DNA of 64,000 nt from an uncultured Actinomycetota bacterium. Lineage in GTDB: Bacteria; Actinomycetota; Actinomycetes; JAHEKZ01. The stretch covers positions 96,001 through 160,000 of the forward strand of contig CAVURN010000001.1 in the NCBI GenBank assembly GCA_963743915.1, given 5' to 3'. The translations under genes and the position numbers were made by a program. Shown here piece after piece: positions 13,945 through 31,285 of this stretch. The notes beneath the pieces were generated by a model. It saw nothing but the letters and a program-made list of their open reading frames with translations. It was not told the origin of the DNA and ran no database searches. Each line of letters begins with the position of its first letter. Position 1 is the stretch's first letter.

Positions 13945-14919
13945 TCAGCCGGCCTTGGCCTTGCGCGTCTCCTCGACGATCGCCGGCAGCACCTTGCTGA
14001 CGTCGCCGATGATCGCGTAGTCGGCGTACCCCATGATCGCGGCCTCGGGGTCGGTGTTGATCACGATCATCGTCTTGGAGTTGCGACAACCGGCGATGTG
14101 CTGAGTGGCGCCACTGATGCCGCACGCGATGTAGAGGTCCGGAGCCACCTTGGTACCCGTCTGCCCGACCTGCTCGGTGTGCGGGCGCCATCCGTTGCCG
14201 GTGACGACGCGCGAGCAGCCCACCGTGCCGCCCAACAGCTCGGCGAGCTCCTCGAGCGGTGCGAAGCCCTCGGCGCTGCCGACACCACGACCGCCTGACA
14301 CGACGACCTTGGCGTCGGCGAGCGAGACACCGGACGCCTCGGCGGACGCCGCAGCAGGCTTGGCGAGGACCAACAGGTCTGTGTCGGAGAGCTCGGGAGT
14401 GAACTCGGTCACGGTGCCCGCACCGGAGCCGCCCGGTTCGGCCGCCACGGTGTGCGGCACGAGTGTCACCAGCGCGGGGGACCCGTGCAGGTTGGCCTCC
14501 TCGATGAGACTGCCACCCCAGCGCGAACGCACCACCTGCGTCGGCGACCCAGGAGCCACCTTCACGCAGTCGGCAGCCACAGGAAGGTCGGTCAGCGCAC
14601 CGAGATGCGCCATGACCTCGTTGCCACGCGGAGTGCCGGCGGCCAGGACGAGGGTGGCGCCGGTGCGCTCGGCCACCTGTGCGGCGGCGCGGGCCGAAGC
14701 CACGGGTGCGTACTCGGTGAGGGCGTCATGCGCGGCGAGGTGCACCGTCGCCACCCCGTGCTCGCCCAGCGTTGCGCTGCCGTCGCGGCCGTCGGCACCG
14801 ACGACCAGGGCGTCGAGCGGCTCACCGGTGGACGCCGCGAGCTCGCGTCCGTAGGTGACGGCCTGCAGCGACAGCTCGTCGAGCTGGCCGTGGTCATGGT
14901 CGATGAGGACGAGCACCAT
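13945..14919 (-). CDS. etfA: Electron transfer flavoprotein alpha subunit
   Basis: VVSGGRGVG, QVGQTG, GISGATQH, INTDPEA motifs. Confidence 0.95.
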   Translation of the reverse strand: MVLVLIDHDHGQLDELSLQAVTYGRELAASTGEPLDALVVGADGRDGSATLGEHGVATVHLAAHDALTEYAPVASARAAAQVAERTGATLVLAAGTPRGNEVMAHLGALTDLPVAADCVKVAPGSPTQVVRSRWGGSLIEEANLHGSPALVTLVPHTVAAEPGGSGAGTVTEFTPELSDTDLLVLAKPAAASAEASGVSLADAKVVVSGGRGVGSAEGFAPLEELAELLGGTVGCSRVVTGNGWRPHTEQVGQTGTKVAPDLYIACGISGATQHIAGCRNSKTMIVINTDPEAAIMGYADYAIIGDVSKVLPAIVEETRKAKAG

Positions 14920-14920
14920 G

Positions 14921-15688
14921 TCAGATCACCCCGATCTGCTTGAAGATCTCGACCACGGCAGGGGCGGCCTCCGGGCCGTTGCCCAGCACCTGCGCGTGCT
15001 TGGCCTCGGTGACGGGCACCTCGAGCCGGGTCTTCTCCAGCTTCGGCTCCGGACGTTCGGGGTTCAGCCGCTCGATCGGCTTCTTCTTCGCACGGATACG
15101 TCCGGGCACGGACGGGTAGCGCGGGATGTTGAGCCCGTCGAGCACCGTGACGACGGCCGGCAGCGGTACGTCGTACTGCTCCACTCCGGACTTGACCGGT
15201 CGTTCGAAGGTGGCTGTGTAATCCGGGCCACCTCCGATCGCAATGCCCTTGACACCGGTCACCACAGGCTGTCCGAGCTTGTGCGCCACCCGGATGCCCA
15301 CCTGGTAGCCGGAAGCATCAGCCGACTCGTTACCCATGATGACGAGGTCGAAGTCGGTCTCGTCGGCATTGATCGCGTCAGCGATCGCGGACGCCGTCGC
15401 CTGCGGGTCCCACTCCTGGCCGTCAGTCTCGAGCAGAATGCCGCGATCGGCGCCGATCGCCATCTGCTCGCGGATCTGCTCCTCGGCCTCGGGTGGTCCG
15501 AGAGTCAGCACCGTGACGCTGCCCTCGCCGGCCTTTTCCACGATGCGCACCGCCTCCTCGACGGCCACCTCCTCGTGCGGGCTGATCGTGAATCCGAGCT
15601 TGGCCGACTCGATGTCGCGACCGTCCTCGGTGATCGTGAACTTGCCCCCGGACAGGGGGACGCGCTTGATGCAGACGAGAACATCCAT
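14921..15688 (-). CDS. etfB: Electron transfer flavoprotein beta subunit
   Basis: MDVLVCIKRVP start, AIGADRG, NIPRYPS; ATG overlaps the upstream TGA. Confidence 0.93.
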   Translation of the reverse strand: MDVLVCIKRVPLSGGKFTITEDGRDIESAKLGFTISPHEEVAVEEAVRIVEKAGEGSVTVLTLGPPEAEEQIREQMAIGADRGILLETDGQEWDPQATASAIADAINADETDFDLVIMGNESADASGYQVGIRVAHKLGQPVVTGVKGIAIGGGPDYTATFERPVKSGVEQYDVPLPAVVTVLDGLNIPRYPSVPGRIRAKKKPIERLNPERPEPKLEKTRLEVPVTEAKHAQVLGNGPEAAPAVVEIFKQIGVI

Positions 15689-18207
15689 CAGGAGAGAATC
15701 CGCTCGTTCTTGGGGTCGAACAGGGGAGTGGCTCCGGCCACCGCGACGGTCACCGGGTAGTGGTCGCCGAGGTACTCGACGACGAGCTTGGTGCCTTCCT
15801 TCGCGTACTCCGGCGGCAGGTAGCTCATCAGCACGTGTTTGCCGACCGACGGTGCTGAACCCGCGCTGGTGACGAACGATCGACGTCCGTGCGCGTCGGT
15901 GATCGGTTCCTTCTCCAACGTGAGGATGGGTTCCTTGCCCATCATGTAGCGCTTCTCGCCGGTGCTGCTGGTGTGGTCGTCGACCGTGAGCGAACACAGC
16001 GTCGCCACAGGATCTTCACTTCGGTGCTTGAGGTGCGACTCCTTGCCGATGAAGTCCGCCTCCTTGACCTTCGGCGGTGCCATTCCGGCCTCGACGACGT
16101 TGAACTCGGTCTCGAGTTCGGTGCCGAAGGCTCGGTAGCCCTTCTCCATGCGGCCGGTCGTGCCATACACGCCGATGCCCACCGGGATCAGGCCGTGCGA
16201 CTGGCCGGCCTCCCAAAGGGCGTCCCACAGCTGGGCGCCCTGCTCCATCGGCACGTACAGCTCCCAGCCAAGGTCGCCGACGTACGAGATGCGCGACGCG
16301 AGCACCTTGAGAGATCCGATTTCGATCGTCTTGCACGTTCCGAACTTGAAGCCCTCGTGCGAGACGTCGTCGCGGGTGATCGACTCGAGGATCCGACGCG
16401 CGTTGGGCCCCCAGATGCCGAGCGTCGTGAGCGACGAGGTGAGGTCGGTGATCTGCGCCGTGCCGTCCTCCGGCAGGTGGTCGCGGAACCACTTCAGGTC
16501 TGCCATGCCGTGCGCTCCGCCAGTGACGACGCGGAAGTGGTCGTGCCCGAGGCGCATGACGGTGAGGTCTGACTTGAACCCCCCGTTCGCCGACAGCACC
16601 GGGGTGTAGACCACACGGCCGACTGGGACGTCCATCTGTCGCATGCAGACCAGCTGCACGGTGTCGAGTGCACCGGGGCCCTGGATGTCGAACTCGACGA
16701 AGGCGGTCAGGTCGACCAGGCCGGCCGTCTCGCGCATCTGCAGGTGCTCGGCGTTGATGATCGGCGACCACCAGCGTGACTCCCACTCGGCGGTGCGTGG
16801 CATGACAGCGTCGCCGAACTTCTCGAGGAGCCCTGCGTTGGACTCGTACCAGAAGGGGCGCTCCCAACCGACGGTCTCGTAGAACTCCGCACCGAGCGCC
16901 TTCTGGCGCTCGTAGTACGGCGACAGACGGACGTTGCGGTTGGACGCCCACTGCTCGTTGGGGTGCACGATGCCGTAGGTCTTGTTGAAGCCCTCGGCAG
17001 TGCGCTCCTTGATGTGCTTACGGGTCTTCTGGTGGTCGTAGAAGCGGGCGATGTCGGACGCCTGAAGGTCGATCTCGGACTCGCCGAGCACCATCCACTC
17101 CGACACCGCCTTGCCGATACCTGGGCCCTCCTTGATCCACACGGCGGACACCGACCAGAGGTTCTTCACCTCGGGGGTCTCACCGAGCAGCGGCATGCCG
17201 TCCGGCGTCAACGACAGCAGTCCGTTGATGGCGTACTTCTGGCCGACCGTCTCGTCGCCCACGATCTCGGGCATGAGCTCGAGGGCCTGCTCGTACTGGA
17301 GCTCGAAGTCTTCAGCGGTGAAGGGGAACTCGGTGGGGGACAGCTGAGCTTCTTCGACCGACGGAAGCTCTTCAGGGTCGTGCAGGATCGCGCGGTGCGC
17401 GTACGATCCGATCTCGAGTCCGTTGCCGTGCTGGCGCTCGTACATGTTGGTGTCCATGTCGCGGACGATCGGGTGCTCGATGTCCCCCTTGGCGTCGGCA
17501 AAACGGGGGACCGGGCCGACGTCGATCATCTGGTGGACGGCGGGGGTCAGCGGGATGGACGCCCCTGCCATCTTGGCCAGACGCGGTCCCCAGAGACCGG
17601 TCGCGATGACGACGTACTCGGCCTCGATGGTTCCGTTGTCGGTCTCGACAGCCTTGATCTGGCCGTTCTCGACGACCATGCCGGTGACCTCGGTGTTGGC
17701 GAAGGTCTGCAGGGCGCCCATCTCCTGCGCCCTCTCGCGCATGATCGTGCCCGCCCGGAGCGAATCGACGACGCCGACGCCCGGTGTGTAGAAGCCGCCG
17801 AGGATGACGTCCGGGTCCATGTACGGCACGAGCTCGACGCACTCGGCGGGTGTGAGCATCTTGCAGCCGGGGATGCCGAATGACTTCGACGACTGCATGC
17901 GACGCTGCAGCTCCTGCATCCGCTCCTCGGTGCGGGCGACCTCGATCCCGCCGCACTCGGTGAAGACGCCCATCTCCTTGTACTGGTGCACGCTGTCGAA
18001 CGTCAGCAGCGCCATCTCTTTGCTGTGGTCCACCGGGAAGATGAAGTTGGACGCGTGGCCCGTCGAGCCACCGGGGTTGGGCAGCGGACCCTTGTCGATC
18101 TGCACCAGGTCGGTCCAGCCAAGACGGGCCAGGTGGTAGGCCATGGAGTTGCCGACGATGCCGGCTCCGATGATGACGGCCTTCGCCCGCGAGGGGAGGG
18201 TGCTCAT
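15688..18207 (-). CDS. Dimethylglycine/sarcosine dehydrogenase-like flavoprotein (DAO + GcvT folate-binding domains)
   Basis: GAGIVG FAD motif, GGSTGHA with the covalent-FAD His, TPDGMPLLGE, SYVGDLGWELY, 839 aa. Confidence 0.88.
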   Translation of the reverse strand: MSTLPSRAKAVIIGAGIVGNSMAYHLARLGWTDLVQIDKGPLPNPGGSTGHASNFIFPVDHSKEMALLTFDSVHQYKEMGVFTECGGIEVARTEERMQELQRRMQSSKSFGIPGCKMLTPAECVELVPYMDPDVILGGFYTPGVGVVDSLRAGTIMRERAQEMGALQTFANTEVTGMVVENGQIKAVETDNGTIEAEYVVIATGLWGPRLAKMAGASIPLTPAVHQMIDVGPVPRFADAKGDIEHPIVRDMDTNMYERQHGNGLEIGSYAHRAILHDPEELPSVEEAQLSPTEFPFTAEDFELQYEQALELMPEIVGDETVGQKYAINGLLSLTPDGMPLLGETPEVKNLWSVSAVWIKEGPGIGKAVSEWMVLGESEIDLQASDIARFYDHQKTRKHIKERTAEGFNKTYGIVHPNEQWASNRNVRLSPYYERQKALGAEFYETVGWERPFWYESNAGLLEKFGDAVMPRTAEWESRWWSPIINAEHLQMRETAGLVDLTAFVEFDIQGPGALDTVQLVCMRQMDVPVGRVVYTPVLSANGGFKSDLTVMRLGHDHFRVVTGGAHGMADLKWFRDHLPEDGTAQITDLTSSLTTLGIWGPNARRILESITRDDVSHEGFKFGTCKTIEIGSLKVLASRISYVGDLGWELYVPMEQGAQLWDALWEAGQSHGLIPVGIGVYGTTGRMEKGYRAFGTELETEFNVVEAGMAPPKVKEADFIGKESHLKHRSEDPVATLCSLTVDDHTSSTGEKRYMMGKEPILTLEKEPITDAHGRRSFVTSAGSAPSVGKHVLMSYLPPEYAKEGTKLVVEYLGDHYPVTVAVAGATPLFDPKNERILS

Positions 18208-18238
18208 GTCGGCGTGCCTTTCGTTCGTGTGTGCTGGT

Positions 18239-18910
18239 TCAGAGCGACCGGCGGATCGAGCTTTCGAACCCGTCGATGTGGGCGTGCATGACCGAGGCGG
18301 CGCGCTCAGGGTCGCCGTCCCGGATGGCTTCGAGGATGTTGCGGTGCTCGAGTACGGCGTCCTCGAGGTTTGTCACTTTGTCGAGGGACAGGAACCAGAT
18401 GCGCAGGGCGTGCATGTAGTGCTCGTCGAGGACCGACTCGAGGAACGCGTTGTGCGCCGCGTGGTACACGAAGCGGTGGATCCGCTGGTCGATCTCGATG
18501 AGCCGTCGCCCGACCGGCTTGACGCTGACGGCGTCGAGCTCGCCAAGAAGGGCCACGAGCTCGACCCGCTCGCCCTCGGTGCGGCGCTCGGCGGCGAGGC
18601 GGGCAGCAAACGGCTCGAGGACCCCGCGTACCTCAGACAGTGCAGCGAGGTCACGGGCGTCCGCCGACGAGACGAACATGCCCCGACGCGGGTAGACCTC
18701 GACCAGCTTGGCCTGCGCGAGTGCGCGGAGCGCCTCGCGGATGGGGGTGCGGCCGAGGCCGAGCCGCTCCATCAGCTCGCGCTCGTCGAGCAGACTGCCC
18801 GGCGGCAGCTCGAGGGTGACGATCAGCTCGCGCAGCGCGAAGAACGCCTGCTCGGACTGGGAGCGGGCGTCCGCGGCGTCGGGCTGGAGGATCTCGACCG
18901 ATGAGGTCAC
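18239..18910 (-). CDS. GntR family regulator (FCD domain)
   Basis: LGLGRTPIREAL wHTH; EHRNILEAIRDGD FCD signature. Confidence 0.93.
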   Translation of the reverse strand: MTSSVEILQPDAADARSQSEQAFFALRELIVTLELPPGSLLDERELMERLGLGRTPIREALRALAQAKLVEVYPRRGMFVSSADARDLAALSEVRGVLEPFAARLAAERRTEGERVELVALLGELDAVSVKPVGRRLIEIDQRIHRFVYHAAHNAFLESVLDEHYMHALRIWFLSLDKVTNLEDAVLEHRNILEAIRDGDPERAASVMHAHIDGFESSIRRSL

Positions 18911-18915
18911 GCGAT

Positions 18916-18925
18916 AGATATATCA
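18916..18925. promoter_or_regulatory. Possible GntR operator
   Basis: AT-rich palindrome aGATATATCa immediately upstream of the gntR start in very GC-rich DNA. Confidence 0.4.
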
Positions 18926-19003
18926 GTCACCACAGATGCTGTATACCCCCCGACGACCCTGGTTCCACCGGATGAAATGCCCGAGGAGGATCCTCGCTGA
19001 CAC

Positions 19004-19058
19004 GATCTTGAGGTTGGGGGCAGACACGTGCGGTGTGTCTGCCCCCAACCTCAAGATC
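19004..19058. terminator. Perfect 24-bp stem hairpin (terminator or REP-like)
   Basis: GATCTTGAGGTTGGGGGCAGACAC-gtgcggt-GTGTCTGCCCCCAACCTCAAGATC, 16 nt downstream of the methyltransferase stop. Confidence 0.7.
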
Positions 19059-19074
19059 AAGAGGGACTTTGGGC

Positions 19075-19950
19075 TTAGAACTCGGCAGCGGCGGCTTCGG
19101 AGGCCTGCTTCGCGCGGTGGATCTGGATCCAGCTCGCGCCCCACTCGTCGTGGCCGAGCATCAGGTCGGCGCCCTTGACGGCGGTGACGACCTGCGGACT
19201 GCGGGCGTCCATGATCGCGCTGGTCAGGCCGGCACGCATCGCCATGGGCAGGAACACCGCGTTGAGGGTGTGCCGGTCGGGCATGCCGAACGACACGTTG
19301 GACGCCCCGAGCGTCATGTTCACGCCGATCTGCTCCCGGATCATGCTGATCGCCTCCATCGTCCGATCGGCGTGCAGCGAGTCGGCACCGATCGGCATGG
19401 CGAGCGGGTCGATCACGATGTCCTCGAGCGGGATCCCGTACTTGGTGGTGGCGATCTCCACGAACTTCTTGGTGAGCTCCACGCGGCGTACGGGGTCGAT
19501 GGGGATCTCGGTCTCGTCGTTGGGCAGGGCGATGATCGCGGCGTTGTGCCGCTTGACCAGCGGCAGGATCAGCTCCATGCGGTCGTCCTCGACGGTCACC
19601 GAGTTGACCAGCGCCTTGCCCTCGTAGGCGCCGAGCCCCGCCTCGAGTGCTTCGACGACGGAGGAGTCGATGCAGAGGGGCAGGTCGGTCAGCGACTGCA
19701 CCAGCTTCACGGCCTTGGCCAGGAGCTCGGCCTCGTCGGTGAGTGGGACCCCCATGTTGACGTCGAGCACCATCGCGCCGCCGGCCACCTGGGTGGCGAC
19801 GTCGGTCTCGACAGCGGAGAGGTCTCCTTCACGCAGCTGCTCCTGGAACTTCTTGCGGCCCGTGGGATTGATGCGCTCGCCGATGATGCAGAACGGCTGG
19901 TCGTCGCCGATGATGACCTGCTTGCTCGCCGAGCTGAGGACGGTGTGCAT
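19075..19950 (-). CDS. Pterin-binding methyl-THF:corrinoid methyltransferase (MeTr/AcsE or split-MetH folate domain)
   Basis: IIGERINPTGRK, LDVNMG, IDSS, VNS, IDPL, GASNVSFG motifs; AGGAG RBS before ATG 19950. Confidence 0.9.
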   Translation of the reverse strand: MHTVLSSASKQVIIGDDQPFCIIGERINPTGRKKFQEQLREGDLSAVETDVATQVAGGAMVLDVNMGVPLTDEAELLAKAVKLVQSLTDLPLCIDSSVVEALEAGLGAYEGKALVNSVTVEDDRMELILPLVKRHNAAIIALPNDETEIPIDPVRRVELTKKFVEIATTKYGIPLEDIVIDPLAMPIGADSLHADRTMEAISMIREQIGVNMTLGASNVSFGMPDRHTLNAVFLPMAMRAGLTSAIMDARSPQVVTAVKGADLMLGHDEWGASWIQIHRAKQASEAAAAEF

Positions 19951-19996
19951 GGTGCTCCTGTTCGTGCTGTTGCTGAGGGTCTGGGTGGCGCCGCGC

Positions 19997-20449
19997 CTAC
20001 TGCGGGCCGTGGAAAGGGGTCGTGAGCGGTCCTTCGTACTCGACCATCGAGTTCCGTGGTTCATCGTCGGCGTCCGCGACAGCCTCGCCACGCCACCCGG
20101 CAGGGGTCTGGCGGTCACGTCCGGTGAGCAGGTTGGTCCAGGACGCGTCGCCCTGCAACTCGTTGTTGACGGGTGGCCGCAGCTCGTGGATGTGCTCGCG
20201 CCAGGCCTTGGGCAGCAGGGGCAGGGTGCGACTGCGGTCCTCCGCCTTCACCCACACGCACCGCATCTCGGGGACGACCTCGCAGTGGCCGTCCTCGCGG
20301 ACGCCTCCGCACGGCCCGTTGCGGAGCGTCTTCGGGCACGTCATGGGGCAGGTCATGCCGGTGGAGTGCAGCACGCACTGACCGCACATGCGGCAGTCCC
20401 ACACGGGACCTTTGATCGCGTGCTCGATGAGCGGAAGGAGCTTGGCCAC
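19997..20449 (-). CDS. Methylene-THF reductase C-terminal-like (MetV-like) Cys-rich protein
   Basis: CRMCGQC...CPMTCPKTLRNGPCGG...CEV...CVW eight-Cys pattern. Confidence 0.85.
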   Translation of the reverse strand: MAKLLPLIEHAIKGPVWDCRMCGQCVLHSTGMTCPMTCPKTLRNGPCGGVREDGHCEVVPEMRCVWVKAEDRSRTLPLLPKAWREHIHELRPPVNNELQGDASWTNLLTGRDRQTPAGWRGEAVADADDEPRNSMVEYEGPLTTPFHGPQ

Positions 20450-20454
20450 GGACG

Positions 20455-21120
20455 TCAGGCGTTGGCCAGGGAGCGGCGGTGGCCGAGGAGCTCTTTGGCG
20501 CGGCGGACCGCGGTGGAGGCGTCAGCGGCGTACCCGTCAGCGCCGACCGCGTCGGCGTACTCCTGGGTCACCGGAGCACCCCCGACCATCACGATCACCT
20601 GATCACGCAACCCCGCCTTCTCCAACGCGTTGATGTTCGCCTTGAACATCGGCATCGTCGTGGTCAAGAACGCACTGAACCCCACAATGTCCGGGCGGTG
20701 CTCGGTGATCGCCTCCACGAACTTCTCCGGCGCCACCTGCACCCCCAGGTCGATCACCTCGAACCCCGCCCCCTCCAACATGATGTTCACCAAGTTCTTC
20801 CCGATGTCATGCACATCCCCCTTCACCGTGCCCATCAAGAACTTGCCCACCGTCTCCGCACCCGTGGCCGCCAACAACGGACGCAACACGTCCAACGCCC
20901 CACTCATCGCCTTACCCGCGATCAACATCTCCGGCACGAAGAAATCACCACGCTCGAACCGCGCCCCCACCTCCTCCAAAGACGGGATCAACGCCTCGAA
21001 CAACAACGTCTCCGGATCCATCCCCAACCCCAGACCCGCATTCGTCAGCTCCAACACCGCCGGCGCATTCCCCACCAACGTCTCATCGAACAGACCCTTC
21101 AAGATCTCCTCAGGCGTCAT
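20455..21120 (-). CDS. Stand-alone cobalamin-binding corrinoid protein (MtgC/MttC-like)
   Basis: Cap domain FFVPEML, GTVKGDVHDIGKN (DxHxxG), SAFLTTT, MVGGAPV. Confidence 0.95.
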   Translation of the reverse strand: MTPEEILKGLFDETLVGNAPAVLELTNAGLGLGMDPETLLFEALIPSLEEVGARFERGDFFVPEMLIAGKAMSGALDVLRPLLAATGAETVGKFLMGTVKGDVHDIGKNLVNIMLEGAGFEVIDLGVQVAPEKFVEAITEHRPDIVGFSAFLTTTMPMFKANINALEKAGLRDQVIVMVGGAPVTQEYADAVGADGYAADASTAVRRAKELLGHRRSLANA

Positions 21121-21893
21121 GCGACACCGACCTTCCGGTTGCGGGGGCGTTCGGTGGGATCCAGGCCGCGCGAGATGGCACGTGTCTCGGTGATGAGCAG
21201 GCGACCGACCCCCGCGATGCGGTTGCCGGTCAGACGAACGGACGGGCCGGTGACCGAGACGGCCGCCACGACGGCTCCGTCGCTGTCGGTGACCGGCGCG
21301 GCAATCGCCACGAGGCCGGGCTCGAGCTCGTTGTCGGCGACGGCGTAGCCGCGGCGACGGACTCCGTCCAGGTCGGCCTGCAGCCGCTCGTGGGTCGTGA
21401 GGGTGCGGTCGGTGCGTCGCTCGAGCCGGCCGCGCGGAACCGGGGTGGCGCCGTAGGCAAGGAACACTTTTCCGAGCGCCGAGCAGTGGAAGGGCACCTC
21501 GCGTCCGACCCAGTTGACGGCGCCGAGCAGGAACCGCGAGTCGACCTGAGCGATCTGCTCGACCGCGGTCGGGCCGGGAACGGCGAGGTTGACCGTTTCT
21601 CCGGTGAGCTCGCCCAGGCGGGCCAAGTGGGGCTGGGCCAGCCGCAGCAGGGCGTCGGCGCGTCCGGAACCTGCGTAGCGCGCGAGCACCGGTCCAGGGC
21701 GCACCGAGGCGTCGCTGCCCCGGCGGACCAGGCCGTGCCGCTCGAGGCTGGTCAGGATGCGCGACGCGGTGCTCTTGGGGAGCTCGGCGCTGGCAGCGAG
21801 CTCGGCGAAGGGCACCGGCCGATCTGCCTGGAGCACGGTGACGAGCAGGGTCGACGCACGGTCGACCGCCTGGGTGCCGGTGGGTGTCGCCAT
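21117..21893 (-). CDS. IclR family regulator
   Basis: GTQAVDRA, LPKSTASRIL, HCSALGK, GLVAIAAPV. Confidence 0.93.
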   Translation of the reverse strand: MATPTGTQAVDRASTLLVTVLQADRPVPFAELAASAELPKSTASRILTSLERHGLVRRGSDASVRPGPVLARYAGSGRADALLRLAQPHLARLGELTGETVNLAVPGPTAVEQIAQVDSRFLLGAVNWVGREVPFHCSALGKVFLAYGATPVPRGRLERRTDRTLTTHERLQADLDGVRRRGYAVADNELEPGLVAIAAPVTDSDGAVVAAVSVTGPSVRLTGNRIAGVGRLLITETRAISRGLDPTERPRNRKVGVA

Positions 21894-21958
21894 GGTGGGT
21901 CCTTCGTCGGGGTGGTGCCGGGTCGATCAGGGACGGTCACACGGAAATGGAACATCGA

Positions 21959-22002
21959 GTTCTACGATATGGAACCCCCGTTCCACGGATGGATAGTAGG
22001 AT
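21959..22002. promoter_or_regulatory. Tandem IclR-type operators and -10 box in the divergent iclR/mttB spacer
   Basis: GTTCTACGATATGGAAC (21959-21975), GTTCCACGGATGGA (from 21980), followed by TAGGAT (21997-22002). Confidence 0.5.
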
Positions 22003-22065
22003 TCCGACGCCCGGCCGGTCAAGGGATCGCGCCGTACTCGCTTCCGTGCCCTGGGAGGGTGATCG

Positions 22066-23505
22066 ATGTTCGTCAACCGGATGCCGCGCTACGAGATCCT
22101 GTCCGAGGACTCGATGGCCACGCTTGACCGCGGGTGGCGGCGCATCGTCAGTGAGATCGGCGTCGAGTTCATGAAGCCCGAGGCGGTCGAGATGTTCCGG
22201 GCCGCGGGGCAGGAGGTCGACGGCGACAACGTCAAGTTCGACCCCGAGTGGATCCTTGCCCAGGTGGCCAAGGCGCCGCGCGAGTTCGACCTGCAGGCAC
22301 GTAACCACGCCAACGACGTGCACATCGGCGGCGACCACATGGTCTTCTCGAGCGTCTACGGCCCGCCCTTTGTCCGCGACGGCGACGTGCGTCGGGACGC
22401 GACGCTCGAGGACTACCGCAACTTCGCCAAGCTGGCTCAGAGCTTCTCGGCGATGGACAGCGTCGGTGGCGTGGTGGCCGAGCCCAACGACGCCCCGCTC
22501 GACAGCCGTCACCTCGACATGCTCTACGCGACCATGACGCTGACGGACAAGATCTACATGGGCAACGTGGTGAGTGGCGTCAACGCCCGGGACACCATCG
22601 CCATGAGCGAGATCGTCTTCGGCGGCCGCGAGGCGATCGAGCAGACTCCGACGTCCATCTCGCTGATCAACTGCAACTCGCCGCTCCGCTGGGACGACCG
22701 CATGCTCGACGCCCAGTTCGAGTACTCGGCCGCCAACCAGCCGGTGATCCTCACGCCGTTCCTGCTCATGGGAGCGATGTCGCCGGTCACCATCCCGGCT
22801 GCGCTCGTCCAGCAGATCGCCGAGGCCCTCACAGGTATCGCCCTCAGCCAGCTGATTCGACCAGGTGCGCCGGTGGTCTTCGGTTCGTTCCTTTCCAACA
22901 TCGACATGCAGTCCGGGTCCCCCCAGTTCGGCACGCCGGAGTCGGCGATCGGGCTGCTCTGCACCGGCCAGATCGCCCGGCACTTCGGGCTGCCGTTCCG
23001 TGGCGGCGGCGGGCTCAACTCCTCGCAGGTGCCCGACGCCCAGGCGGCGTGGGAGGCGCTCATGACGATGATGCCGACGTTCCTGTCGGGCACGAACTTC
23101 GTGATGCACACCGCCGGCTGGCTCGAGGGCGGGCTCGTGTCCTGCTTCGAGAAGTACGTGATGGACGTGCAGGTGCTCGAGCTGCTCCAGAAGGAGTTCA
23201 CGCCGCTCGAGATCACCGAGGAGGACCTCGCCTTCGACGCCCACCTCGAGGTGGGCCACGGCGGTCACTTCCTCGGCGCCATGCACACGATGGAGCGCTT
23301 CCGCACCTGCTTCTACCGGCCCTGGCTGTCGACGTCGGACAACTTCGAGCGGTGGTCGCGCAACGGGGCGAAGGACACCGCCGCACGTGCGACGGAGATC
23401 TACCACCAGAAGATCGAGGAGTACGAGCAGCCTCCGCTCGACGACGCCGTCCGCGAGGAGCTCGAGGACTACGTCATCCGCCGCCGCGCCGAGCTCGGCG
23501 ACTGA
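22066..23505 (+). CDS. mttB: MttB-superfamily (COG5598) non-pyrrolysine methyltransferase, probable glycine betaine:corrinoid methyltransferase
   Basis: INCNSPLRWD, GAMSPVT, FGTPE, VPDAQAAWE, HTAGWLEGGL, GGHFLG; no in-frame amber codon. Confidence 0.9.
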   Translation: MFVNRMPRYEILSEDSMATLDRGWRRIVSEIGVEFMKPEAVEMFRAAGQEVDGDNVKFDPEWILAQVAKAPREFDLQARNHANDVHIGGDHMVFSSVYGPPFVRDGDVRRDATLEDYRNFAKLAQSFSAMDSVGGVVAEPNDAPLDSRHLDMLYATMTLTDKIYMGNVVSGVNARDTIAMSEIVFGGREAIEQTPTSISLINCNSPLRWDDRMLDAQFEYSAANQPVILTPFLLMGAMSPVTIPAALVQQIAEALTGIALSQLIRPGAPVVFGSFLSNIDMQSGSPQFGTPESAIGLLCTGQIARHFGLPFRGGGGLNSSQVPDAQAAWEALMTMMPTFLSGTNFVMHTAGWLEGGLVSCFEKYVMDVQVLELLQKEFTPLEITEEDLAFDAHLEVGHGGHFLGAMHTMERFRTCFYRPWLSTSDNFERWSRNGAKDTAARATEIYHQKIEEYEQPPLDDAVREELEDYVIRRRAELGD

Positions 23506-23529
23506 CTGAGCAGGTAACCGCCCAGCCCA

Positions 23530-23790
23530 CCGAGTGCGCGGCTGGTGGACGTCAAAGCCTGCCGAGTGCGCCCCTGGCTGCGTGCGGAGCAAGTCGAGTG
23601 CGCGCAGCGCACACGACGTCGCGGAGGAGCAGCCAGGGACGCACTCGGCTGCGGGGCACACGTGCCGCCGCCGACGTGGCCCGGTGCGGATGATGCTGCT
23701 GGAAGTGCCGCCATGGCGTCACTTCTCGCTACAACTCTGCGCGCACTCGACGCGCTCCACGCAGCCAGTGACGCACTCGGCTGCGGGGCA
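23530..23790. repeat. REP/MITE-like cluster of CGAGTGCG/CGCACTCG units
   Basis: CGAGTGCG at 23531, 23563, 23595 and CGCACTCG at 23640, 23742, 23772; 30-bp direct repeat 23629-23658/23761-23790 with 1 mismatch. Confidence 0.75.
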
Positions 23791-23798
23791 GGCAGGAA

Positions 23799-23836
23799 GT
23801 GAGGGGCCCGGTGGCGGTTGCCACCGGGCCCCTCAC
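23799..23836. terminator. Hairpin between convergent genes (bidirectional terminator candidate)
   Basis: Perfect 17-bp stem GTGAGGGGCCCGGTGGC-ggtt-GCCACCGGGCCCCTCAC. Confidence 0.75.
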
Positions 23837-23858
23837 GTCTGCTGGATCGATCAGATGA

Positions 23859-24830
23859 CTAGGGCAGCCAGGCCTCGACCTTGTCGGGGTTGTCGTCGAT
23901 CCACATCTGGGCTGCCTCTTCTTGAGACATCCCGTCCTCGGCGATGTACTTCGCGACCAGGTTCTGGTCGTCGTTCGTCCACTCGAAGTTCTGGACGAGG
24001 TCGGCGGCCGGGCTGCCGGACTCCATGAACTCCTTGCTGGCGATCTTGTCGAGGATGTACTCGGGGTAGTCACACGCGACCGTCTTCGGGTCGGCGTCGC
24101 AGCCCTCTTCGTAGGGCGGCAGGCTGACCTTGACGAGCGGAACCTCGGAGAGGAACCACTGCGGCTCGTAGAAGTACCCGATCAGGTACTCCTGGTTCTC
24201 CTCGGCCTGTCGGAACGCAGTGATCAGCGCTGCCTCGCTGCCGGCGTACACCACCTTGAAGTCGAGGTCGAGGTTCTCGATCAGCGCCTCGTCGTTGGTG
24301 ACGAATGACGGGTCACCGGCGAGGAACTGGCCCTGACCACCGGACTCCGACGTGGCGAACTCGTCGGCGTAGTCGTTGAGGTTCTCCCAGTCGAGCACGT
24401 CGGGCTCGGCCTCGGCCAGCCACGGCGGCACGTACCAGCCGATGTAGCCGATGTTGCCGTTCGGGCCGACCACGACTGCGGTTCCCTGGTCCTCGATGTA
24501 CTTCTTCTTGAGGTCCTCGTGACCCCAGTTCTCGATGACGACATCGACCTCGCCGGTGCCGAAGCCCTGCCAGGCGATCTCCTCCTTGAGGTCCTTGTAC
24601 CGGTGTCGCAGCCGAGCTCCTGGCTCGGCCACCTCGCCGACGACGTAGGCCGACGCCTCGTAGCCGACCCAGGGGTTGATCGCCATGTTGAACTCGCCGC
24701 AGTCGGCGGTTCCACCGTCGCCGCCGGTGTCGGTGCTCTCGATGTCCCCGCCGCCACAGGCGGCCAGGACCAGGCTGACGGCAGCCGCCATGGCTGCCGC
24801 GCGTCCGGCCCGTCTCTTGGTTACTCGCAC
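23859..24830 (-). CDS. Glycine betaine/choline ABC transporter substrate-binding lipoprotein (ProX/OpuAC family)
   Basis: AAGGAG RBS and GTG 24830, lipobox LAAC, NPWVGY, ENW, GWYVP, YFYEPQW; short compensated frameshift near 24600-24620. Confidence 0.88.
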   Translation of the reverse strand: MRVTKRRAGRAAAMAAAVSLVLAACGGGDIESTDTGGDGGTADCGEFNMAINPWVGYEASAYVVGEVAEPGARLRHRYKDLKEEIAWQGFGTGEVDVVIENWGHEDLKKKYIEDQGTAVVVGPNGNIGYIGWYVPPWLAEAEPDVLDWENLNDYADEFATSESGGQGQFLAGDPSFVTNDEALIENLDLDFKVVYAGSEAALITAFRQAEENQEYLIGYFYEPQWFLSEVPLVKVSLPPYEEGCDADPKTVACDYPEYILDKIASKEFMESGSPAADLVQNFEWTNDDQNLVAKYIAEDGMSQEEAAQMWIDDNPDKVEAWLP

Positions 24831-24871
24831 TCTTTGCTCCTTCTGTCGGGCCGCGGTCCTGCGGCTTGGGG

Positions 24872-26888
24872 TCAAGCGGTCTCGGCCCGCCCGTAGCGGG
24901 CGGCGGTGTGGACGGTGATGCGGTCGAGCATGACGCCCAGCGCGGTGATCGCGATGCCTGCAGCGAGGCCCTTGCCGAACAGCTGGGCCTGGGAGAAGCC
25001 GGCGACCACCAGGTAGCCGAGTCCGCCTCCCCCGACCAGTCCACCGATGACGACCATCGAGAGCACGAAGAGCAGGCCCTGGTTGGCGGACAGCACCATC
25101 GAGCCGCGAGACATCGGCAGCTGGACCTTGCCGATCATCTGCCACCTGTTGGTGCCGGCCGACTCCGCCGCCTCGACGGTGGTCGGAGAGACACCGCGGA
25201 TGCCGTCGGCGGCGATCTTGATGGCGACCGGTGCGGCGTAGGCGACCGCGGCCACGATGGCGAGGAACCGGCCAGCGCCGAAGAGCGCCAGAGCGGGGAT
25301 GAGGTACACGAAGGCGGGCAGGGTCTGCAGCATGTCGAGCACGGGTCGGATGAGGGCATCCACCCGCCGGCTGCGCCCCATCCATACGCCGACCACGACG
25401 CCGATGGACATGGTCATGAGAGCGGCGAGCAGCGTCATGGCGAGCGTCACCATGGAGTCGTACCAGAGCCCGGTGCCGAGGATGATCGCCAGCATGACCA
25501 CTGTGGCCCCAGAGCCCGACGGCCGCCCAGCAGGAAGGCGATGGCCAGGATCGCGAGCCGCGGTGATGAACCAAGGTGACTCGGCCAGCAGGTCCTGAAG
25601 CGGGTTCAGCAGGAGTGTTGGTCACGAAGTCCTTGATCCACTGGGTGATGTCGCGGAACGTGTCGACGAACCACTCGGAGAAGTCGTTGACCCCATCGGC
25701 GAGGGAGTCGCCCCAGTTCCAGTCGTCCGGGAACTCGGCGCAGCTGCAGGCTACTGGCGGGACAGGAAGACGCCGACGATCGCGATGCCACGCCGCCGCC
25801 GATGAGCATGATGCGCCGGAGCTGGGCGTTCTCGCGCCGGCGAGCCGCGGCCTCGGCGCGTTCTCCGGCGGCCGTGGTCATCCGGTCGAGCATGATCGCC
25901 AGGAGCACGAGGCAGAGGCCGGCGACAAAGGCACGCACCGACGTTCAGGATCTGCAGCGCCTTGAGATCGGGCACCCCGAGACCGGGGCCGTTGATCAGC
26001 GCGGCGATGACCGCCATCGACAAGGCCGCCATCGTGGTCTGGTTGAGACCCACCAGGATCGTGCGACGCGCCATGGGCAGCTGCACCTTGCGCAGCTGCT
26101 GTGCTGTCGGTCGAGCCGAGCGAGGTCGGTGGCCTCGATGGTCGTCGGTGAGACGGTCCGCAGACCGTGGGCGGAGATCCGCACCAATGGCGGCAGCGCG
26201 TAGATCAGCGTGGTCACGACGGCAGCGGCGGGACCGATGCCGAAGAAGAGCGCCAGCGGAGCCAGGTAGGCGAACGACGGCATGGTCTGCATCACGTCGA
26301 GCACCGGCGTGAGCGCCGCAGTTGCCGCCTTGCTGCGACTCATCCAGATCCCGAGCGGGATCCCGATCAGGACGCAGACCGCCACGGAGACCCCGGTGAT
26401 GATGAGCGTGTCGACGGTGTCTTCCCAGTAGCCGAGCGTGCCGCAGATCACCAGCGCGCCGGCCACGAGCAGTGCGCTTCGGACGCCGGCGATGGCGAGT
26501 GCCACCCAGGTCGAGATGGCCACGAGCCCGAGCCAGCCGATCACCGGTACCGGGCGCCCGTAGGCGGGGTCGACGAAGAGCTTCTGGAAGAACTCGACGA
26601 CCCAGTTGAAGGTCTCGCTGATCCAGTCGAAGGGGAGGAAGAGCGGGCTGCCCTCGAACTTGGCCTGGTCGACCCAGTCACGGACGTCGTTGAGCCAGAG
26701 CTGGAAGGAGTTGAGCTCAGCGACCGGGACCTGGAGAGTCCATTTGCCCCTCGAGCAGGAAGTAGCCGACCACGATCCAAGCGACCACCACGCCGAGCAG
26801 CAGCCACCAACGGCTGATCGCCTGGCGCTCGTGCCGGCTGGTGCTCCAGCGGCGTCTGCGGGTGCTCGATCTCGGCGAGCTGCGATCG

Positions 26889-26892
<4 letters not shown>
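24872..26892 (-). CDS. Betaine ABC transporter fused double permease (several frameshifts)
   Basis: Two ProW-type halves, [13 protein letters not shown] and [13 protein letters not shown], each with an EAA loop, spread over several frames. Confidence 0.82.
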
Positions 26893-27960
<1,068 letters not shown>

Positions 27961-27964
<4 letters not shown>

Positions 27965-29665
27965 GACGCGACTCCCTCGTTGTTGCGTGGGTCACCCGGT
28001 GGGTAGAGCGGAGTGCCCTCGCGGTAGCGGTAGAACGGCGCCTCCGACGGCGGAAGTGGGGTGTTGCCGGCGATCAGGTCGGCAGCCTTCTCGGCGAGCA
28101 TCATCACCGGGGCGTAGATGTTGCCGTTCGTGACGTAGGGGAACGAGCTGGCGTCGACGACCCGCAGCCCGTCGACGTCGTAGACGCTCATGCTGGTCGG
28201 GTCAAGCACGGCATCGTCGCCGACGCCCATCTTGGCGGTGCAGGAGGGGTGCAGCGCTGTCTCCGCGTCGTCGCGCACCCACTCGAGGATCTCGTCCTCG
28301 GTCTCGACGCCCTTGCCGGGCGAGAGCTCGCCGGCGTTGAACGGGTCGAACGCGGGCTGCGTGAGGATGGTGCGAGCCACCTGCACCGCCTCGACCCACT
28401 CGCGCTTGTCCTGGTCGGTCGACAGGTAGTTGAACTGCATCGACGGGTGCTCCAGCGGGTCCGTCGAGCGGATCTTCACCCAGCCGCGGGCGTCGGAGTA
28501 CATCGGACCGATGTGCACCTGGTATCCGTGCCCCTTGGTTGGCGAGGTGCCGTCGTAGCGGATGGCGATGGGCAGGAAGTGGAACATCAGGTTGGGGTAG
28601 TCGACGTCGTCGTTGCTGCGGCAGAAGCCGCCGCCCTCGAAGTGGTTGGTGGCGCCGAGGCCCTTGCGTGCGAAGAGCCACTGGGCGCCGATGCCGGGAC
28701 GCTTCCACCAGGCGAGCCCGGGAGCGATCGAGACGGGCAGCTTGCTGGAGTACTGGATGTAGACCTCGAGGTGGTCCTGCAGGTTGGCCCCCACGCCCGG
28801 TAGGTCGGCGACCACGTCGATCCCCGAGCGACCGCAGGTGCTCGGCATCGCCGACGCCGGAGAGCTGCATCAGCTGCGGGGTGTTGATGGCACCGCCGCA
28901 GAGGATGACCTCGCCGGCCTGCACGGAGCGCTTCATCTTGCCGGCCCGCAGGTACTCGACGCCGACCGCGCGCTTGCCGTCGAAGACCACCTTGGTGGCG
29001 TGCGCGAGCGTCTCGACGTCGAGGTTCTTGCGGTTCATGACCGGGTGCAGGTACGCACGCGCCGCGCTGAGCCGGCGTCCCCGGTGGATGTTGCGGTCGA
29101 ACTTGGCGAAACCCTCCTGTCGGTACCCGTTGACGTCGTCGGTGAGCGGGTAGCCGGCCTGCTGCGCCGCCTCGAAGAACGCCCCGAAGAGCGGGTTGGT
29201 CGCCGGACCGCGCTCCAGGACGAGGGGGCCGCTGCCGCCACGCCAGTCGTCCGCCCCGGCCAGGCACGTCTCCATGCGCTTGAAGTAGGGGAGGCAGTGG
29301 GCGAAGTCCCAGGTCTCCATGCCCTTGTCGGCGCCCCAGCGCTCGTAGTCCATGGGGTTGCCGCGCTGGAAGATCATGCCGTTGATGCTGCTCGAGCCGC
29401 CGAGCACCTTGCCGCGCGCGTGGAAGATGCGGCGGTTGTTCATGTACGGCTCGGGGTCGGTCTCGTACCGCCAGTCGTAGAGCCGACTGCCGATGGGGAA
29501 CGGCAGGGCGGCCGGCATGTGGATGAACGGGTCGAAGATGAAGTCAGACCGCCCCGCCTCGAGCACGAGCACCGAGGTGGAGGGGTCGGCGCTGAGCCGG
29601 TTGGCGATCGCCGACCCGGCCGAGCCGCCGCCGACGATGACGTAGTCGTACCGGTCGCCGCTCAT
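27961..29665 (-). CDS. betA: Choline dehydrogenase (frameshift near 28830)
   Basis: [53 protein letters not shown]. Confidence 0.92.
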
Positions 29666-29700
29666 CTGTCCTCCGTGGGGGTGAGGGTCGGTTCGGTCAC

Positions 29701-31170
29701 TCAGCCACCGAACCAGTGCTGGGCGGCCGGCGCGAGGTTGCGCCAGACGTGCTTGGTCTCGCGGTACTCGGCAAGCCCGTGCAGGCCGAGCTCACGCCCG
29801 AAGCCGGACTGCTTGTATCCGCCCCACTCCGCCTGCGGGACGTAGGGGTGGAAGTCGTTGATCCAGACGGTGCCGGCACGGAGGCCGGACGCTACGCGAT
29901 CGGCCTTCGCGTCGTCGGAGGTCCACACCGCCCCGGCCAGGCCGTAGTCGGTGTCGTTGGCGAGCCGCAGGGCCTCGGCCTCGTCGGTGAACGTCTCGAC
30001 GGTCATCACCGGGCCGAACGACTCCTCGCGGACCACCGTCATCTCCGGTGTGCAGCGGTCGAGGATCGTGGGGAGGTAGTAGAAGCCGTTGGCGAGCTCG
30101 GGGGCGTCCGGCCGCGTGCCGCCGCAGCGCAGCTCGGCACCCTCGTCCACCCCGGCGGCGACGTACGCCTCGACCTTCGCCCGGTGCGCCTCGGAGATGA
30201 GCGGGCCGGTCTCCGCCCGCTCATCGAACGGGCCGCCGACCCGGATGGTGGAGGCGCGACGCACGAGCTCGTCGACGAACTCGTCGTGGATCGACTCCTC
30301 GACCAGCAGGCGGGCGCCGGCCGAGCACACCTGACCGGAGTGGAGGAACACCGCCGTGAGCGCCATGTCGAGCGCCGCCTCGCGGTCGGCGTCGGCGAAG
30401 ACGATGTTCGGGTTCTTGCCGCCGAGCTCGAGCGCGACCTTCTTCACGGTGGGCGCGGCGGCCGCCATGAGGATCCGACCGGTCGACAAGCCCCCGGTGA
30501 ACGACACGAGATCGACGTCGTGGTGCGTCGACAGCAACGCGCCCACCGCCGGGCCAGTGCCCAGCACGAGGTTGCCCGCGCCGGCGGGCAGGCCGGCCTC
30601 CGCCAGCTCGCGCATCAGCAGGATCGCGGTGGACGGCGTCAGCTCGCTGGGCTTGAGGACGAACGTGTTGCCCGCGGCCAGGGCGGGCGCCACCTTCCAC
30701 GACGTCTGCAGGAGCGGGTAGTTCCACGGCGTGATCAACCCGCAGACGCCGACCGGCTCGTGCACCACGCGGCTGCGCACATCGGTGCGGCCGAGCTCGA
30801 TCTCGCGGTCGGAGTCCTCGGCGGCCAGCTTCGCGTAGTAGCGGAACACGGCGATGATGTCGTCCATGTCGTACTGGCTCTCGACCAGCCGCTTGCCGGT
30901 GTCGAGGGACTCCGCGCGGGCGAACTCGTCGCGGTGGCGCTCGAGGGCGTCGGCGACCCGGTCCAGCAGGGCGCCTCGCTCGGCCGGGCTGGTGCGCGGC
31001 CACGGCCCGTGGTCGAAGGCCGTCCGTGCTGCGGCGATCGCCGCCTCGGTGTCGTCGGCCGTCCCCTCGTCGACGGTGGCCACCAGGGAGCCGTCGGCCG
31101 GGCACCGGATCTCACGGGTGCCGCCCAGCTGGGCGCCGGTCCACGTGCCGTCGATGAAGAAGTCGGCCAC
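29701..31170 (-). CDS. betB: Betaine-aldehyde dehydrogenase
   Basis: [34 protein letters not shown]; adjacent to betA; GTG 31170 with RBS. Confidence 0.88.
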
Positions 31171-31246
31171 AGCACTCCCCTCGGTTGGGGGCCGGTCGGG
31201 GCGAGGGCGAGCGCGACGGCGCTGGCCGGGCGTCCTCCCCGGCTGA

Positions 31247-31285
31247 TGTGGGCCCCACAATGGTGAGCCCCTGGTGGGCCGTCAA
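31247..31285 (-). promoter_or_regulatory. Putative betB promoter with overlapping palindrome
   Basis: TTGACG-N17-CATTGT on the minus strand; TGTGGG-c-CCCACA palindrome at 31247-31259. Confidence 0.45.

Follow-up and report, generated by a model that had tools for sequence, protein, structure and literature searches.

A cobalamin (B12)-dependent route for the aerobic demethylation of glycine betaine has been established by genetics and proteomics in Ruegeria pomeroyi DSS-3 (Mausz et al. 2025, PMC12478193), and deletion of mtgB1 provides evidence for the same route in Phaeobacter inhibens (bioRxiv 10.64898/2025.12.19.695462). The same step, from betaine to dimethylglycine, is also performed by the Rieske monooxygenase GbcAB and by BHMT. 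The MtgB-MtgC-MtgA system of Desulfitobacterium hafniense, which is served by RamA, stops at dimethylglycine. For the Actinomycetota, 5% of the ocean mtgC reads have been assigned to this phylum in PMC12478193, and the available text of the Arthrobacter Rue61a genome paper names only dimethylglycine oxidase on this route (PMC3534580). No characterised actinobacterial case was found in a literature judged mainly at the level of abstracts, of which the supplementary genome lists of PMC12478193 and of the P. inhibens preprint may hold actinobacterial entries. The present analysis concerns a stretch of 64,000 nucleotides from an uncultured Actinomycetota bacterium (assembly GCA_963743915.1, contig CAVURN010000001.1), hereafter the window, in which an island of genes at 13.9-31.3 kb is probably the actinobacterial version of the aerobic, cobalamin-dependent MtgB-MtgC-MtgD pathway of glycine betaine demethylation. 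A prediction made earlier from the letters of this stretch alone (hereafter the original prediction) had proposed an undescribed system, without any characterised actinobacterial example; the latter statement agrees with the literature found, while the former was overstated, since the three-component aerobic route has been shown in Ruegeria and Phaeobacter. The locus is thus an extension of a 2025 discovery and brings no new principle.

The reading is directly supported by the gene content, the domain identities, the conservation of the cluster, of key residues and of an operator motif, and the accessory genes that the genome contains. From these we infer the substrate, the direction of the flux, the pairing of regulators with targets and the role of MetF with its MetV-like partner. 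In the proposed pathway, an OpuAC-type ABC importer would take up choline and/or betaine, and BetA and BetB would convert choline to glycine betaine. The first methyltransferase (MT1, MtgB) would transfer one betaine methyl group to the cob(I)alamin carried by MtgC, the corrinoid protein, with the release of dimethylglycine, and the second methyltransferase (MT2, MtgD) would pass it on to tetrahydrofolate (THF). MetF, together with a Cys-rich DUF5981 (MetV-like) protein, would oxidise the resulting methyl-THF to methylene-THF, while a flavoprotein of the dimethylglycine dehydrogenase (DMGDH) family would place a methyl group of dimethylglycine onto THF and deliver electrons through EtfAB to the respiratory chain. 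An activase of the RACo/RamA type would re-reduce oxidised cob(II)alamin, and expression would be controlled by an IclR regulator, acting on a conserved GGAAC-N4-GTTCC operator, and by a GntR regulator. BetA and BetB make betaine and DMGDH uses dimethylglycine, and between these two the MT1 step is the only gap. The sequence from choline through betaine and dimethylglycine to sarcosine with capture of the methyl groups on THF, as put forward in the original prediction, is well supported by the domains, by synteny, by three of four betaine-binding residues and by the presence of RACo, MetF, CobS, complex I and a haem-copper oxidase, with the substrate read from the gene context.

The locus shares with the MtgBCD(E) systems of Ruegeria and Phaeobacter a non-pyrrolysine MT1 of the MttB family, a separate corrinoid protein, a pterin-binding MT2, a RamA/RACo activase, a dedicated MetF, dimethylglycine/sarcosine dehydrogenases and BetAB in an oxygen-respiring host, and likewise a stand-alone MtgE-like module in the absence of a canonical MetH. 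It differs from them in belonging to the phylum Actinomycetota, in the duplication of the corrinoid gene in the genus of the window, and in that most of its actinobacterial relatives hold one compact cluster including RACo, MetF, the MetV-like gene and IclR with a palindromic operator. Three of its features are absent from the published accounts consulted, namely the compact cluster that includes a MetV-like gene and a candidate operator for IclR, a Trp352/Gly356 substrate pocket, and a genus devoid of MetH and MetE with a duplicated corrinoid gene. The cluster therefore offers a concrete and testable candidate for the betaine-to-dimethylglycine enzyme of actinobacteria. If the reading is true, the B12-dependent aerobic route known from marine Proteobacteria would also be used by Actinomycetota of soil, sediment and freshwater, a B12 requirement would be added to actinobacterial osmolyte turnover, and methionine synthesis in a MetH-less genus would be tied to the same module.

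Since the window has about 70% G+C, genes were chosen by their third-position GC together with Pfam and NCBIfam domain searches, and these searches recovered all the island genes of the original prediction where it had placed them. All of them lie on the minus strand with the sole exception of mttB (plus strand, 22066-23505; PF06253, 632 bits), which encodes the MtgB-like MT1, a quaternary amine:corrinoid methyltransferase of the MttB family. The MtgC-like corrinoid protein (copy 1, 20455-21120, 221 aa) carries PF02310 and PF02607. It is followed by the small Cys-rich, MTHFR C-terminal-like DUF5981 protein (19997-20449; PF12225, 85 bits) and by the MtgD-like MT2, a pterin-binding methyl-corrinoid:tetrahydrofolate methyltransferase (19075-19899, its exact start lying somewhere between 19.9 and 20.02 kb; PF00809, 103 bits; NF005719, 313 bits against a cut-off of 259). 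The dimethylglycine/sarcosine dehydrogenase-family flavoprotein (15688-18207) combines DAO, FAO_M, GCV_T and GCV_T_C domains, the last two forming a folate-binding GcvT domain; it is encoded in one single frame and is 94% identical to its orthologue in genome G317, and in the NCBIfam search it attained no equivalog cut-off. The electron transfer flavoprotein (ETF) genes follow, with EtfB at 14921-15703 (PF01012, 122 bits) and EtfA at 13945-14919 (PF00766, 118 bits; PF01012, 97 bits). The start of EtfB is approximate, as the NCBIfam models align only from about residue 104 of a long open reading frame (ORF) onwards and the G317 orthologue aligns to 15703-14924. On the other side of mttB lie the OpuAC-type substrate-binding protein of the importer (23859 to about 24880; PF04069, 116 bits), which is in a single frame relative to its Nocardioides and G317 orthologues, a fused two-domain ABC permease (24872-26928; BPD_transp_1 in two ORFs, delimited by frame plot), the ABC ATPase (26889 to about 27918; PF00005, 119 bits), the GMC-family choline dehydrogenase/oxidase BetA (27961-29668; GMC_oxred_N and GMC_oxred_C in different frames) and the betaine aldehyde dehydrogenase (BADH)-like BetB (29701-31260; PF00171, 564 bits).

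The conservation of this arrangement was examined in related loci, for which at least 589 of 600 matching stretches were confirmed as MT1 relatives and 80 loci with 76-91% identity were kept. Nearly all of these bear the label Actinomycetota, and cultured Nocardioides, Phycicoccus and Agilicoccus are among them. With a neighbour counted where a match exceeded 50% coverage at 45% identity or more within the fetched flanks of 10 kb, many contigs being truncated, the mttB orthologue is accompanied by IclR in 75 loci, the corrinoid protein in 72, MT2 in 59, BetA in 54-56, the ATPase in 51, BetB in 49, the permease in 45, the binding protein in 34, DUF5981 in 25, GntR in 13, EtfB in 10 and EtfA in 8. 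RACo lies no more than 10 kb from mttB in 63 of the loci, and MTHFR in 25. The usual order in the relatives is EtfAB, DMGDH, GntR, RACo, MT2, MTHFR, DUF5981, corrinoid protein and IclR in one direction, followed in the opposite direction by MttB, BetA/BetB and the ATPase, permease and binding protein. As this set of genes is found again beside the MttB orthologue in the 80 loci, and five genomes of the same genus are colinear with the window, the grouping of the island is not a matter of chance. Of 300 other Actinomycetota genomes sampled evenly, 37 have an MttB-family gene (E <= 1e-60) and only 3 an orthologue with at least 70% identity, whereas in the order of the window, which comprises one family and 20 genomes of 2-3.4 Mb, an orthologue at 84-91% identity occurs in 15 of the 19 others and in all 12 of those genomes that are at least 90% complete. 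The cluster is thus unevenly distributed in the phylum and part of the core gene set of this lineage, which is the outcome of the survey that had been proposed as a check of the original prediction.

The mttB ORF comprises 479 codons and has no internal stop, and its product is therefore a non-pyrrolysine member of the family, as the original prediction had stated; it scores 278 bits with the equivalog model of the pyrrolysine (Pyl) enzyme, TIGR02369, below the cut-off of 525. Full-length alignments with solved structures gave 444 bits for PDB 4YYC, 388 bits for 2QNE and 387 bits for 9YCE, the latter two being the D. hafniense MtgB (the 9YCE entry is titled 'Glycine betaine methyltransferase'). 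The Methanosarcina Pyl-MttB (7XCL) belongs to the same family, PF06253, but reaches only 132 bits, and mttB has no in-frame amber codon. The title of the best solved relative, 4YYC, is 'putative trimethylamine methyltransferase' and assigns no substrate; the protein presumably comes from Sinorhizobium meliloti. The locus is like the D. hafniense system in this full-length MT1 relationship, in the conservation of Y97, R312 and H348 and in the same logic of corrinoid protein and activase. It is unlike it in the type of MT2, in a Gly in place of F356 with a Trp at 352, in its oxygen-respiring host and in that dimethylglycine would here be degraded further by DMGDH and ETF. According to Picking et al. 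(2026, PMC13080624), Y97 and F356 form the pi-cation pair of D. hafniense MtgB and R312 and H348 are the carboxylate ligands; enzymes for different acidic quaternary amines retain R312 and, to a lesser degree, H348, but not the aromatic pair. Native MtgB numbering corresponds to the 2QNE chain index minus 16, which agreed for all the four residues in the alignment. Three of the four betaine-binding residues of MtgB, Y97, R312 and H348, align to Y98, R312 and H348 of the MT1 of the window, so that this part of the residue check suggested with the original prediction bore out the expectation. Y98, R312, H348, W352 and G356 occur without exception in the 81 cluster-linked orthologues compared.

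Several observations weigh against the proposed pathway. The fourth residue of the check did not agree: F356 of MtgB aligns to Gly356, with a Trp at position 352 (motif HTAGWLEGGL), and of the aromatic pair only the Tyr is found. The MT1 is 43-47.5% identical to alphaproteobacterial plasmid copies, and its relationship to proteins of known substrate is thus only moderate in this comparison with plasmid-borne homologues. The corrinoid protein has MtgC_2 as its top NCBIfam model at 202 bits, under the cut-off of 370, and BetB scores 607 bits with the BADH model TIGR01804, slightly under the cut-off of 669. DMGDH lies within 10 kb of mttB in only 16 of the 80 loci, partly owing to the limit of the flanks and the truncated contigs. 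CobN was not found in the genome, in which CobS is present, and de novo B12 synthesis is therefore unproven; PurU had no match at the cut-off in the genome. The betA, ATPase and permease genes are frame-broken in the sequence as given. Lastly, pSymA of S. meliloti (L124, CP140953.1, 703036-722472) carries a 43.5%-identical MttB homologue in a context without BetAB, and family membership alone hence does not fix the substrate.

Some of these points would fit an enzyme that acts on another quaternary amine, such as choline, proline betaine, carnitine or gamma-butyrobetaine, with betAB and DMGDH adjacent to it as members of a shared regulon and not as consecutive steps. Apart from the replacement of F356, the occurrence of R312 and H348 in enzymes for different acidic quaternary amines, the different catabolic context of the pSymA homologue and a second MttB paralogue in the genome speak for such an enzyme. 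That paralogue (G000:C3:68250-69845, or L094:8250-9845, minus strand; positions outside the window are given by genome, G000, and contig) is 39.5% identical and has a Gly at the position equivalent to Tyr97, whereas the MT1 of the window retains the Tyr, which is invariant in the cluster-linked clade. No other enzyme of the cluster bridges the product of BetA/BetB and the substrate of DMGDH, and the cluster context is kept in dozens of genera. Moreover, 4YYC has the same H-x-AGWLEGGL motif, and the Gly/Trp arrangement is therefore not peculiar to this clade. A different substrate is on this evidence unlikely, and glycine betaine is retained as the probable substrate; Trp352/Gly356 may represent a variant of the pocket, which does not appear in the published accounts of MtgB that were consulted.

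The second paralogue adjoins an RTX-repeat protein and several ORFs that match no Pfam family, and no corrinoid gene was found near it. The pSymA homologue has as neighbours a large flavin adenine dinucleotide-dependent oxidoreductase, LysR and GlxA regulators, an Xaa-Pro peptidase, an OpuC-type importer and an MR/MLE enzyme, which looks like a context for the catabolism of another betaine; this neighbourhood was considered as the MtgBCDE locus of Mausz et al. and rejected, its catabolic context being different. A plasmid search with the MT1 gave 141 records, all below 60% identity; the matches listed are Proteobacteria, and no actinobacterial plasmid copy is among them.

With respect to the downstream methyl transfer, the corrinoid protein aligns to its solved relatives PDB 1Y80 (194 bits) and MttC (150 bits), and the best solved relatives of MT2 are MeTr/AcsE (2YCI, 147 bits) followed by the pterin modules of MetH, with no chain named MtgA among 17 solved relatives. 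As MT2 is of the AcsE/MetH type and the corrinoid protein is nearest to MtgC_2, the composition is that of MtgB-MtgC-MtgD, as in Ruegeria, and not that of MtgB-MtgC-MtgA, as in D. hafniense. Domain searches found neither a reductive activase nor MetF in the window. Both are present at a second locus on the same contig, about 315 kb from the island (G000:C1:433-436.4 kb), which contains a second copy of the corrinoid gene (G000:C1:432971-433669), an MTHFR (MetF) and a RACo/RamA-type activase with the full set of Fer2, linker, middle and C-terminal domains, the last two genes at G000:C1:433.6-436.4 kb. The proteins of the two corrinoid copies are 99.1% identical, and a DNA repeat of 656 bp with 99.85% identity spans just the corrinoid gene (window 20466-21121 and G000:C1:433000-433655, or L093:7000-7655). 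Five same-genus genomes have the same layout as the window, without RACo and MTHFR in the island, and several have two corrinoid genes; the relocation of RACo and MTHFR is therefore a trait of the genus. A misassembly, considered as the reason for the lack of RACo and MetF in the island, was rejected on the agreement of these five genomes. The near-identity of the copies in a duplication found across the genus hints at gene conversion. The DUF5981 protein, which keeps a constant position beside MTHFR in the relatives, has a Cys pattern that we take to resemble that of the MetV small subunit of acetogen MTHFRs, and this position fits a putative MetV-like role.

The IclR-family gene (21117-21893, minus strand; PF09339 and PF01614) is divergent from mttB and ends in an overlap with the beginning of the corrinoid gene; the GntR/FCD-family gene lies at 18239-18910 on the minus strand (PF00392 and PF07729). 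The spacer between iclR and mttB contains the palindrome TGGAAC-CCCC-GTTCCA (21970-21985); the window has no other match to TGGAAC-N4-GTTCCA, and chance alone would give 0.02. The core GGAAC-N4-GTTCC was found 60-140 nt upstream of mttB exactly in 28 of 79 loci and with at most one mismatch in 59, compared with a background elsewhere in the same loci of 0.003 per kb (exact) and 0.023 per kb (at most one mismatch). The palindrome is accordingly a candidate operator, predicted from its position and conservation to be bound by IclR. Five further exact sites were found in the genome (G000:C1:660065, C2:619036, C3:148007, C3:263074 and C3:482046), that at C3:148007 no more than some 2 kb from a DMGDH-like paralogue, and these could mark more members of the same regulon. 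No Rfam family reached the gathering score anywhere in the window, and by this test there is thus no cobalamin riboswitch at the locus.

The same methyl-transfer proteins may also bear on methionine synthesis. The MetH model matches only separate pieces in the genome, its activation domain has no match there, and MetE was not found in the genome. Full-length MetH occurs in 0 of 14 genomes of the genus of the window and in 5 of 6 of the sister genera, and MetE-family matches across the order are weak (21-48 bits in four genomes), none of them being convincing. A stand-alone homocysteine-binding MtgE-like protein, to which a rhizobial 'BHMT' model is nearest, is encoded in this genome and, with 64-72% identity, in 11 of the 13 others of the genus, and its gene is absent from three MetH-bearing sister genomes. 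These counts rest on incomplete genomes resembling metagenome-assembled ones. In PMC12478193, 108 of 156 MtgBCD genomes are without MetH, MtgC and MtgD are required for methionine synthesis as well as for growth on betaine, and a rhizobial BHMT-type protein is re-interpreted as MtgE. A MetH-less genus with a predicted MtgE-like module appears to mirror these findings.

It is accordingly conceivable, though we lean away from it, that the corrinoid protein, MT2, RACo and MetF mainly constitute a split methionine synthase together with the MtgE-like module, and that betaine demethylation is a secondary use of them. The distribution of MetH, MetE and the MtgE-like gene described above favours such an arrangement, as does its agreement with the Ruegeria model (PMC12478193). 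It is, however, compatible with the betaine pathway and does not exclude it. Further, the betaine cluster of most relatives itself contains the corrinoid gene, MT2 and RACo, next to mttB, many of these relatives belong to large-genome genera whose MetH status lay outside the survey, and the present genome is 90% complete and error-prone. The betaine demethylation pathway hence remains the preferred reading of the island. The two functions can tentatively be joined in a wider proposal, which at present we would rather doubt than assert, in which the MtgC-MtgD-RACo core and the stand-alone MtgE-like module would be the only methionine synthase of a genus without MetH and MetE and would also serve betaine catabolism. 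This dual function would have arisen or spread independently in the Actinomycetota, the genus-wide duplication of the corrinoid gene would have set apart two copies, one catabolic and under the control of IclR and the other expressed together with MetF and RACo, and Trp352/Gly356 would provide an alternative aromatic cage for betaine.

The original prediction had described the organism as apparently aerobic, which is consistent with its respiratory genes. A complex I (nuo) operon occupies 38-54.6 kb of the window, in which nuoD, F, G, H, L, M and N were matched, followed by a polyprenyl synthetase, and the genome has a COX1 match of 364 bits, that is, a haem-copper oxidase; as complex I genes are present in the window and COX1 in the genome, the host is predicted to respire oxygen. 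Neither GbcAB nor BHMT is in the window, as had been noted in that prediction, and the related genes elsewhere in the genome all fall under the equivalog cut-offs. No gene of the genome reaches the GbcA equivalog (NF058607, cut-off 670), for which three Rieske genes score 175-203 bits, and a gene at G000:C3:187 kb scores 297 bits with the BHMT model (PRK07534), under the cut-off of 338. These three Rieske genes encode oxygenase alpha subunits with GbcA as their best NCBIfam model (G000:C1:6426-7565, C5:446451-447650 and C1:827394-828524; L088-L090), and their products may serve as N-demethylases for other quaternary amines. At least six further DMGDH/sarcosine dehydrogenase-like genes of the DAO and GcvT type (830-850 aa) were found in the 2.9-Mb genome, at G000:C1:586893, C5:144976, C5:420846, C3:150075, C5:135514 and C2:220663, and this multiplicity is suggestive of an organism specialised in methylated amines.

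The frame breaks in betA, the ATPase and the permease require separate consideration. The break in betA at about 28822-28828 consists of one extra C in a run of C residues relative to the nearest relative, L004, and that in the ATPase at about 27065-27077 likewise of one extra C. The permease is broken at about 25.6-25.9 kb, where the 708-aa orthologue of Nocardioides sp. Root1257 aligns in two frames here and in one frame in L115-L118. At least seven breaks occur in the 64 kb, at about 11.2, 25.6-25.9, 27.07, 28.82, 33.2-33.5, 37.2 and 41.0 kb. The genes affected include nuoD, whose conserved C-terminus goes on in another frame, a P-type ATPase, which is split, and the genes at about 11.2 and 37.2 kb, which are split relative to G317; outside the window, ctaD (cytochrome oxidase subunit I) lies in three frames (G000:C2:522644-523977). 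Third-position GC is still at least 0.9 in the displaced frames of the broken genes.

Were betA, the ATPase and the permease truly pseudogenised in this genome, the strain would demethylate only betaine obtained otherwise. The three broken genes do fall within 4 kb, and L004 likewise has fragmented permease and binding-protein genes. However, all three genes are in a single frame in four same-genus genomes, both of the mapped breaks are single extra C residues, the displaced frames have kept their third-position GC, and the completeness of the genome is only 90% although it comprises just five contigs. Assembly error is favoured because the breaks also hit genes outside the island, including essential respiratory genes, in a five-contig, 90%-complete genome. 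Real pseudogenes are therefore improbable, and indel errors of the assembly are very probably, judging by the sequence pattern, the source of the breaks. Given this pattern of indels, any gene call in this genome needs checking for frame breaks.

In L004, the permease and binding-protein genes at 11.5-14.7 kb are split into many frames while betA and the ATPase are intact, and this fragmentation could be due either to another error-prone assembly or to a true degeneration of the importer in that genome. Just upstream of the island, at 10.0-13.9 kb of the window, lie genes for an enoyl-CoA hydratase, a frame-broken member of the enolase superfamily (MR_MLE) and a thiamine pyrophosphate-dependent enzyme.

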